A DNA stretch of 64,000 nt, taken from NCBI RefSeq assembly GCF_051903065.1, contig NZ_CP178438.1, one strand, 5' to 3'. The position numbers were made by a program, and so were the translations under genes. This stretch comes from Escherichia coli. GTDB taxonomy: Bacteria; Pseudomonadota; Gammaproteobacteria; Enterobacterales; Enterobacteriaceae. The notes under the pieces are model-generated. The model was not told the origin of the DNA and did not search any database. It saw only the letters and a list, made by a program, of their open reading frames with translations. Each line of letters begins with the position of its first letter. Position 1 is the stretch's first letter. Shown piece after piece: positions 59,115 to 59,323 of this stretch.

Positions 59115-59281
59115 TTATTGTGGTCGGTGATGCTGACTCTGGCAGATCTGACCCGTTTTTACATAATCGAGAAATGCGCGCAAGCCGCAGGACATATACT
59201 GGCGGTTTGGGTAATACATTTGGAAGCTGTGCTGTAAGGGCGTGAGAAATAGAGCTCTGAATTATTTATGCAGTGCGGAAT

Positions 59282-59313
59282 AAAAAAGCGGCAACTCAAT
59301 AAAGTTGCCGCTT
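59282..59313 (-). terminator. pflA rho-independent terminator
   Basis: Hairpin agcggcaac...gttgccgct followed by a T-run on the minus strand. Confidence 0.6.
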
Positions 59314-59323
59314 TACGGGGAAA

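Follow-up and report, generated by a model that had tools for sequence, protein, structure and literature searches.

The window analysed here, a stretch of 64,000 nucleotides from Escherichia coli, carries ycaC, ycaD, ycaM, pflA and a gene for a tyrosine recombinase in this order, based on the list of open reading frames and an NCBIfam scan of these frames. Between the ycaM stop codon (59112-59114) and the pflA stop codon (59324-59326) lies a gap of 209 bp (59115-59323), in agreement with the ~210 bp given in a preliminary description of this DNA that was made from the sequence alone. The features of the locus, with the methods by which they were recognized, are:

55385-56011, minus strand: ycaC (list of open reading frames and NCBIfam)
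56326-57474, plus strand: ycaD (list of open reading frames and NCBIfam)
57684-59114, plus strand: ycaM, encoding an APC-family permease of 476 aa, intact (tblastn, NCBIfam)
59115-59225, minus strand: ycaN pseudogene stub (tblastn, translation, PGAP)
59227-59228, no strand: junction of the very probable deletion (blastn against the K-12-like locus L001, breakpoint inspection, multi-species alignments)
59228-59284, plus strand: relic of the ycaK 3' end and the ycaK-pflA spacer (MAFFT alignment)
59285-59314, minus strand: predicted intrinsic terminator hairpin of pflA (terminator scan, RNA fold)
59324-60121, minus strand: pflA, encoding pyruvate formate-lyase activating enzyme (NCBIfam PRK11145, 523 bits; tblastn)
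60153-61148, minus strand: int, encoding the tyrosine recombinase (list of open reading frames and NCBIfam)

The two genes that border the gap closely resemble their K-12 counterparts. YcaM of the window is 99.6% identical to the K-12-like protein over residues 1-476 (tblastn) and has APC/GadC-like matches in the NCBIfam scan; its start is taken as 57684, the mechanical open reading frame beginning further upstream, and PGAP uses the name ycaM in L002, a locus identical to that of the window. Residues 2-246 of PflA (59327-60061) are 100% identical to K-12-like PflA. The RefSeq annotation of K-12 MG1655 gives the order ycaD, ycaM, ycaN (minus strand), ycaK (plus strand) and pflA (minus strand) (b0898-b0902), which agrees with the K-12 order given in the preliminary description. 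That description had also stated that ycaN and ycaK are missing between ycaM and pflA and that an indel distinguishes the region from K-12, and both points are borne out. With K-12-like YcaK as the query, tblastn gave no match across all 64 kb of the window, and K-12-like YcaN found only residues 267-302, at 59118-59225 on the minus strand.

The gap had been thought to contain just the pflA terminator hairpin. This is wrong, as a 111-bp remnant of ycaN and ~57 bp of ycaK tail and spacer are also present. The ycaN stub comprises the stop codon and the last 36-37 codons of the gene and directly abuts the ycaM stop codon; homology to ycaN at the DNA level extends to 59227. It matches YcaN residues 267-302 with 94% amino acid identity (E = 1e-18, tblastn) and K-12-like ycaN at 107/111 nucleotides (3.6% divergence), and its translation ends in ...FQMYYPNRQYMSCGLRAFLDYVKTGQICQSQHHRPQ compared to ...FQIYYPNRQYMSCGLRAFLDYVKTGQICQSQRHRPQ at the YcaN C-terminus. 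According to Pfam, intact YcaN is a LysR regulator with an HTH_1 domain (PF00126) at residues 7-63 and a substrate-binding domain (PF03466) at residues 91-290. HTH_1 is gone from the stub, only YcaN residues ~266-302 being kept in the window, and a Pfam scan of the 37-aa stub gave no family, the LysR substrate-binding domain PF03466 included. There is no complete ycaN open reading frame and no native ycaN start codon at the locus, and the frame is stopped 14 codons upstream of the homologous part. In every genome inspected with the short arrangement (n = 4; L002, L003, L048 and L050), PGAP annotates the 111-bp piece as a LysR-family or "hypothetical" pseudogene that is "incomplete; missing N-terminus". 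Within the stub, the change of an Ile codon to Met (ATC to ATG; complementary to 59217-59219) opens an in-frame reading frame of 34 codons (59118-59219, minus strand); this ATG is found in the E. coli short alleles examined and not in E. albertii. Because no Shine-Dalgarno sequence was seen before this ATG on reading the sequence, the 34-codon frame is probably meaningless. A sigma-70-like promoter candidate at 59139-59167 was rejected, a single site being at chance level (0.6 expected).

Adjacent to the stub, TGTGCTGTAAG (59228-59238) matches K-12-like TGCACTATAAG, i.e., the Ala-Leu-stop of ycaK. What remains of YcaK, a Flavodoxin_2-fold NAD(P)H oxidoreductase according to Pfam when intact, is thus only ~11 nt of last codons and stop, with no Flavodoxin-like fold domain (PF02525) or protein-level homology. 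The spacer part of 59228-59284 is heavily diverged from K-12 with small indels, and ungapped homology starts again at 59268. The relic was recognized in a MAFFT alignment of the window, E. albertii, three other Escherichia lineages and the K-12-like right flank. In this alignment, the ycaK end reads TGCACTATAAG in the K-12-like locus, TGCACTATAAG in L007, TGTGCTATAAG in E. albertii and TGTGCTGTAAG in the window, and the relics of L007 (TGCACTATAAGATGCG) and E. albertii (TGTGCTATAAGTGATG) are intermediates that link the window form, TGTGCTGTAAG...CTGAATTATTT, to that of K-12. The idea that the 40-bp stretch at the junction is foreign or templated filler DNA was dropped, the multi-species alignment identifying it as decayed ycaK stop and spacer; a blastn search of the K-12-like locus for another source of this stretch gave no further significant match.

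The segment at 59285-59314 has the G+C-rich stem-loop and U-tract of a predicted Rho-independent terminator. On the minus strand, the stem comprises 13 pairs (6 G-C) with the core GCGGCAAC and a 4-nt loop, and the U-tract tail is TTTTATTCCGC; the fold has a free energy of -20.3 kcal/mol (z = -5.88), and 0/200 shuffled sequences were equally stable. The hairpin is kept in all Escherichia loci aligned. On the plus strand, the same hairpin faces the convergent ycaM, ~170 nt downstream of this gene in the short allele, without a T-run. An Rfam scan of 58900-59500 with E values up to 1 indicated no sRNA; the sole match, to STnc250, is the terminator hairpin itself and lies below threshold (17.7 bits compared to a gathering score of 42).

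On the left, homology to the K-12-like locus stops at 59227, which corresponds to L001 4628 inside ycaN, and on the right it resumes at 59268, which corresponds to L001 6140 downstream of ycaK, such that 1511 bp of L001 face 40 bp in the window. The missing ~1.47-1.5 kb comprise the first ~265 codons of ycaN, the divergent promoter region between ycaN and ycaK, and ycaK except for its last ~3 codons; at the junction, ycaN codon ~266 adjoins the ycaK stop relic. The preliminary description had left it to alignments to distinguish between deletion and insertion. Because the C-terminal stub of ycaN and the ycaK stop relic remain, the polarity within Escherichia is that of a deletion. We conclude that the short ycaM-pflA gap is very probably the scar of an old deletion of ~1.5 kb that took most of ycaN and essentially all of ycaK. 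The search for short direct repeats that had likewise been proposed was run with L001 4600-4665 against L001 6085-6145; it gave nothing convincing, with a best match of 6/7 and no repeat at the junction. Such repeats may have been lost since the deletion, given its age. Because no direct repeat marks the breakpoints, we infer illegitimate recombination as the mechanism; a single deletion of this type would have removed most of ycaN, the divergent promoter region and nearly all of ycaK.

The arrangement is widespread in E. coli. A query of 1301 bp that spans the junction has a coverage of at least 80% in 1022/5426 complete genomes, and a 66-bp query restricted to the junction, which cannot match K-12-type genomes, is found at full length in 1023. 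The allele without ycaN and ycaK thus accounts for 1023/5426 genomes (~19%), including those of O157:H7, O55:H7, strain 042 and the window, and intact ycaM-ycaN-ycaK is found in 3341/5426 (~62%), including K-12 MG1655 and O104:H4. At the 66-bp junction, 988 of the 1023 genomes have at least 95% identity to the query, and nearly all carriers differ by at most two substitutions; the exact variant of the window is rare, with at least 99% identity in 3 genomes. A third allele, in which ycaM is deleted together with ycaN and ycaK and ycaD lies next to pflA, is present in ~1000/5426 genomes (~19%), including CFT073 and EC12 (NZ_CP070229.1). This count is an estimate from ~1020 genomes with at least 99% identity and from the remainder of 5426-3341-1023 = 1062, as the CFT073-type junction query is unspecific (5411 genomes covered to at least 80%). 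In the CFT073-type allele, the deleted segment starts directly behind the ycaD terminator and stops shortly before that of pflA (L004 5947-6042; L047/CFT073 36204-36299). Three major alleles thus make up a lineage-level polymorphism of the ycaD-pflA interval. With the same gene order in 1023 independent complete genomes, chance can be set aside as an explanation. The short allele is also already known in the sense that RefSeq/PGAP annotates its stub, and it is ordinary gene-content variation. The phylogroup labels D/E for the short allele and A/B1 for the intact allele come from a few named strains and textbook knowledge rather than from a tree. We make no claim on the phylogroup of the window, an attempt to derive it from a 20-kb comparison with K-12, O157, 042 and CFT073 having been abandoned when the window proved to be mosaic (98.9% identity to K-12 and 99.2% to O157).

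Other arrangements were seen besides these alleles. A few genomes have other neighbours of pflA, e.g., GF43, in which a second bcsB/bcsC cellulose-synthesis cluster, broken by an IS3 element, abuts pflA (L005 1-5866). In E69, three large membrane-protein open reading frames lie downstream of ycaM (L023 8532-13428). Some genomes with the intact allele (H31, H32) have ycaN or ycaK interrupted by an IS3-family or IS1 element, and these interruptions are further independent inactivations of the pair.

On its other side, pflA is followed by the recombinase gene of a P2-like prophage. In an equivalent genome, genes for prophage Cox, a C-type repressor and a DUF2732 protein are annotated, and the int-pflA junction is present in 404/5426 complete E. 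coli genomes. The preliminary description linked the two sides of pflA by regarding the short gap as a second indel next to the prophage. This link is coincidental: E. coli ECNB21-M121 has a ycaM-pflA junction 100% identical to that of the window and no prophage, and in strain EC12 (NZ_CP060933.1) the prophage junction is accompanied by ycaN-ycaK. Because each occurs without the other, the prophage is independent of the deletion. The prophage is integrated at the very start of pflA (60040-60160). The 5' end of the gene reads ...CACCGCA ATG TCA GTT ATT... in the K-12-like locus compared to ...GGGGCTACC AAG TCA GTT ATT... in the window, and from this comparison the native start codon, ribosome-binding site and promoter region of pflA have been replaced by phage DNA. 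Because the prophage end replaces the native start, the pflA frame is open to an ATG at 60121, which gives a PflA of 265 aa with a phage-encoded extension of 19 residues. The extended gene lies 31 bp downstream of int in the same orientation, and PGAP annotates the 265-aa protein as WP_000067977.1.

Several observations bear on the age of the short allele. The flanks of the window differ by ~1% from the K-12-like locus (0-7 mismatches per 200 bp), with mismatches clustering at 59211, 59217 and 59220 and throughout 59228-59274. By contrast, the relic from the junction to the terminator is ~57% identical to the K-12-like sequence and ~76% identical to that of E. albertii, as counted by hand in the MAFFT alignment. 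E. albertii, the ycaM DNA of which is 84.6% identical to that of the window, has its junction at the same base, and the two share TGTGCT (compared to TGCACT) and CTGAATTATTTATG, both of which are missing from the K-12-like right flank. Because divergence from K-12 is much greater next to the junction than in the flanks, the allele looks old, although the informative junction-proximal segment is only ~60 bp and the estimate of age depends on few sites. The deletion would either predate the diversification of E. coli, as an ancestral polymorphism, or have passed between Escherichia species when homologous recombination took place in the conserved ycaM and pflA flanks. There is a tension in that the stub, at 3.6% divergence from intact ycaN, seems too young if the deletion predates the split between E. 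coli and E. albertii. Its low divergence can be reconciled with an old age only by assuming that recombination with intact alleles later homogenized the flanks, which would have reached up to ~17 bp from the junction. Among other Escherichia lineages, L007 and L008 (ycaM identities of 93.7% and 90.9%) have junctions within 5 bp of that of the window. In L006 (ycaM identity of 95.6%), the ycaN remnant is 32 bp longer and that of ycaK is shorter, and its deletion is therefore, judged from the retained sequence, a separate and independent event. At least two losses besides that at the window/E. albertii junction are seen, in the L006 lineage and in CFT073-type strains.

Beyond Escherichia, one genome per species was scanned with YcaM and then by tblastn. 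In Citrobacter, Salmonella arizonae/diarizonae, Kluyvera, Yokenella and Pluralibacter, ycaM adjoins pflA with no trace of ycaN; the ycaM-pflA spacers in these outgroups are unrelated to the Escherichia gap, and each has its own hairpin. The sites in Salmonella, Citrobacter and Kluyvera look as if they were never occupied or were fully erased. Some Citrobacter and Kluyvera loci have an insertion between ycaM and pflA, either a gene for a signal-peptide protein of ~263 aa or a cluster of ~5 kb (L011, L013, L033 and L042, ~7400-12500; L015, L021 and L034, ~7470-8270); by sequence appearance, the cluster encodes PTS components, transketolase halves and an RpiR-like regulator. Across genera, the spacer between ycaM and pflA is thus a hot spot for insertions. 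The closest YcaN homolog outside Escherichia is that of Pseudocitrobacter corydidari (79% identity), which is accompanied by a YcaK homolog (67%), and Hafnia has a ycaN/ycaK pair elsewhere in the genome. Because P. corydidari has such a pair at ycaD-pflA, its presence at this site is not restricted to Escherichia. The divergent ycaN/ycaK pair is an accessory two-gene module. The scar-free sites of Salmonella, Citrobacter and Kluyvera, together with the pair in P. corydidari, identify the ycaD-pflA interval as a site of recurrent gain and loss and a small hot spot across the Enterobacteriaceae. The YcaM searches also returned homologs with 62-66% identity in Clostridium, Pelosinus, Anaerospora and Sporomusaceae (L035-L041). 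For anaerobic Firmicutes and Negativicutes, this identity is unusually high for such a distance and suggests horizontal transfer. A YcaM fragment 98% identical to E. coli on contig NODE_614 of Corallococcus aberystwythensis (L046; 396 bp, coverage 0.67) almost certainly reflects contamination of this assembly with E. coli DNA.

These data allow alternative explanations of the short gap to be weighed. The adjacency of ycaM and pflA in Salmonella, Citrobacter, Kluyvera, Yokenella and Pluralibacter, with 40-150 bp and one hairpin between the genes, could be taken to mean that the short arrangement is ancestral in E. coli and that K-12-like strains gained ycaN-ycaK. The accessory status of the pair at the level of the family, the different contexts of the Hafnia homologs, and the finding that all loci recovered from Escherichia other than E. 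coli are without an intact pair point in the same direction. However, the short allele holds 111 bp of true ycaN coding sequence and the ycaK stop relic, which an empty pre-insertion site would not, and the scar-free outgroup spacers share no sequence relation with the Escherichia gap. Because of these two lines of evidence, the pair predates the short allele and an insertion in E. coli is very improbable; insertion may be true only for an ancestor deeper than Escherichia. It is still less probable, indeed barely credible, that the deletion is recent and strain-specific and possibly tied to the neighbouring prophage, as the preliminary description implied by calling the indel strain-specific. 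While the exact 66-bp variant in only 3 genomes and the prophage ~0.8 kb away would be in line with such an event, the same junction is present in the 1023 genomes, which represent different pathotypes, and in E. albertii, the junction-proximal sequence is strongly diverged from K-12, and prophage and short allele are found separately in ECNB21-M121 and in strains with intact ycaN-ycaK. A collapse of ycaN-ycaK out of the assembly has a negligible probability, given that the locus is single-copy and non-repetitive and has an identical structure in 1023 complete genomes from many laboratories.

An old deletion also has to be set against recurrent, parallel deletion at a hot spot, in which the junctions of the E. 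coli D/E-type strains and of E. albertii arose independently and the allele is not ancient and would require no transfer. At least two, perhaps three, junction types (window/E. albertii, L007/L008 and L006) lie within a span of ~40 bp at the left breakpoint and ~10 bp at the right one, the larger deletion in CFT073-like strains makes clear that loss of these genes is recurrent, and the stub of E. coli hardly differs from intact ycaN, as would be the case for a younger event. On the other hand, the junctions of the window and E. albertii are the same to the base and have in common derived relic states missing from the K-12-like right flank. Moreover, had the deletion occurred recently in a K-12-like template, the relic would be ~98% identical to K-12 and not ~57%, and no repeat was found that would drive site-specific recurrence. 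We therefore consider independent origins of these junctions rather unlikely and favour a single old deletion for the window and E. albertii. A more far-reaching proposal is that the presence or absence of ycaN-ycaK is an ancient polymorphism that crosses species, with the same deletion junction in E. albertii and D/E-type E. coli and intact copies kept in A/B1-type strains, implying repeated or balancing selection on a regulator that in K-12 affects neighbouring genes of formate and anaerobic metabolism (focA, ycaC and ycaD). We regard this as speculative and, on present evidence, improbable. If true, it would mean that ~38% of E. coli are natural ycaN nulls with rewired regulation around the pfl locus.

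Genomes with the short allele are natural nulls for ycaN and ycaK. In E. coli BW25113, deletion of ycaN alters expression of ycaC, ycaD and focA and causes a negative formate phenotype, and the role of YcaN is listed as unknown (PMC9068703). Loss of the YcaN-dependent regulation of these neighbours, as described for K-12 (PMC9068703), is thus likely in the carriers, as is loss of the YcaK oxidoreductase. The ycaN-ycaK deletion left the pflA coding sequence and terminator untouched, and pflA itself should be unaffected by it. Approximately 4 in 10 complete E. coli genomes are without ycaN and ycaK, and the K-12 gene order is not universal. Because both genes are missing in O157:H7-, 042- and CFT073-type strains, the findings on YcaN in K-12/BW25113 (PMC9068703) are not transferable to these strains. 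The short allele marks a lineage, and the junction, with its three alleles, could be used for simple strain typing. By itself, the finding matters little; what small evolutionary interest it has lies in the age of the allele, its recurrence and its setting in a hot spot.

Compared to K-12 MG1655, the window has flanks that are ~99% identical, the same pflA terminator, and a ycaM stop codon that likewise adjoins the ycaN stop codon; the difference is the 1511 bp with ycaN codons 1-~265, the divergent promoter region and ycaK, which are replaced by 40 bp in the window. The closest known counterparts are O157:H7 (ATCC 43894), O55:H7 and 042, which have the same order of ycaD, ycaM, a 111-bp LysR-family pseudogene and pflA, a 66-bp junction 97% identical to that of the window (two substitutions) and the same terminator. 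In these strains, however, pflB directly follows pflA, whereas the window has the P2-like prophage there. The CFT073-type arrangement is another deletion allele of the same interval that ends just before the same pflA terminator, but it also is without ycaM, has no ycaN stub and represents a separate, larger event. Salmonella, Citrobacter and Kluyvera resemble the window in having ycaM and pflA as convergent neighbours separated by a single hairpin; they differ from it by having no remnant of ycaN or ycaK and by a YcaM that ends in ...RRGR* compared to ...RKANSK*. Finally, Pseudocitrobacter corydidari (L051 3217-6930) has an intact divergent pair of ycaN-like and ycaK-like genes between ycaD and pflA, in an interval that is without ycaM and ycaC and instead contains a second LysR gene and a gene of the choloylglycine-hydrolase family.
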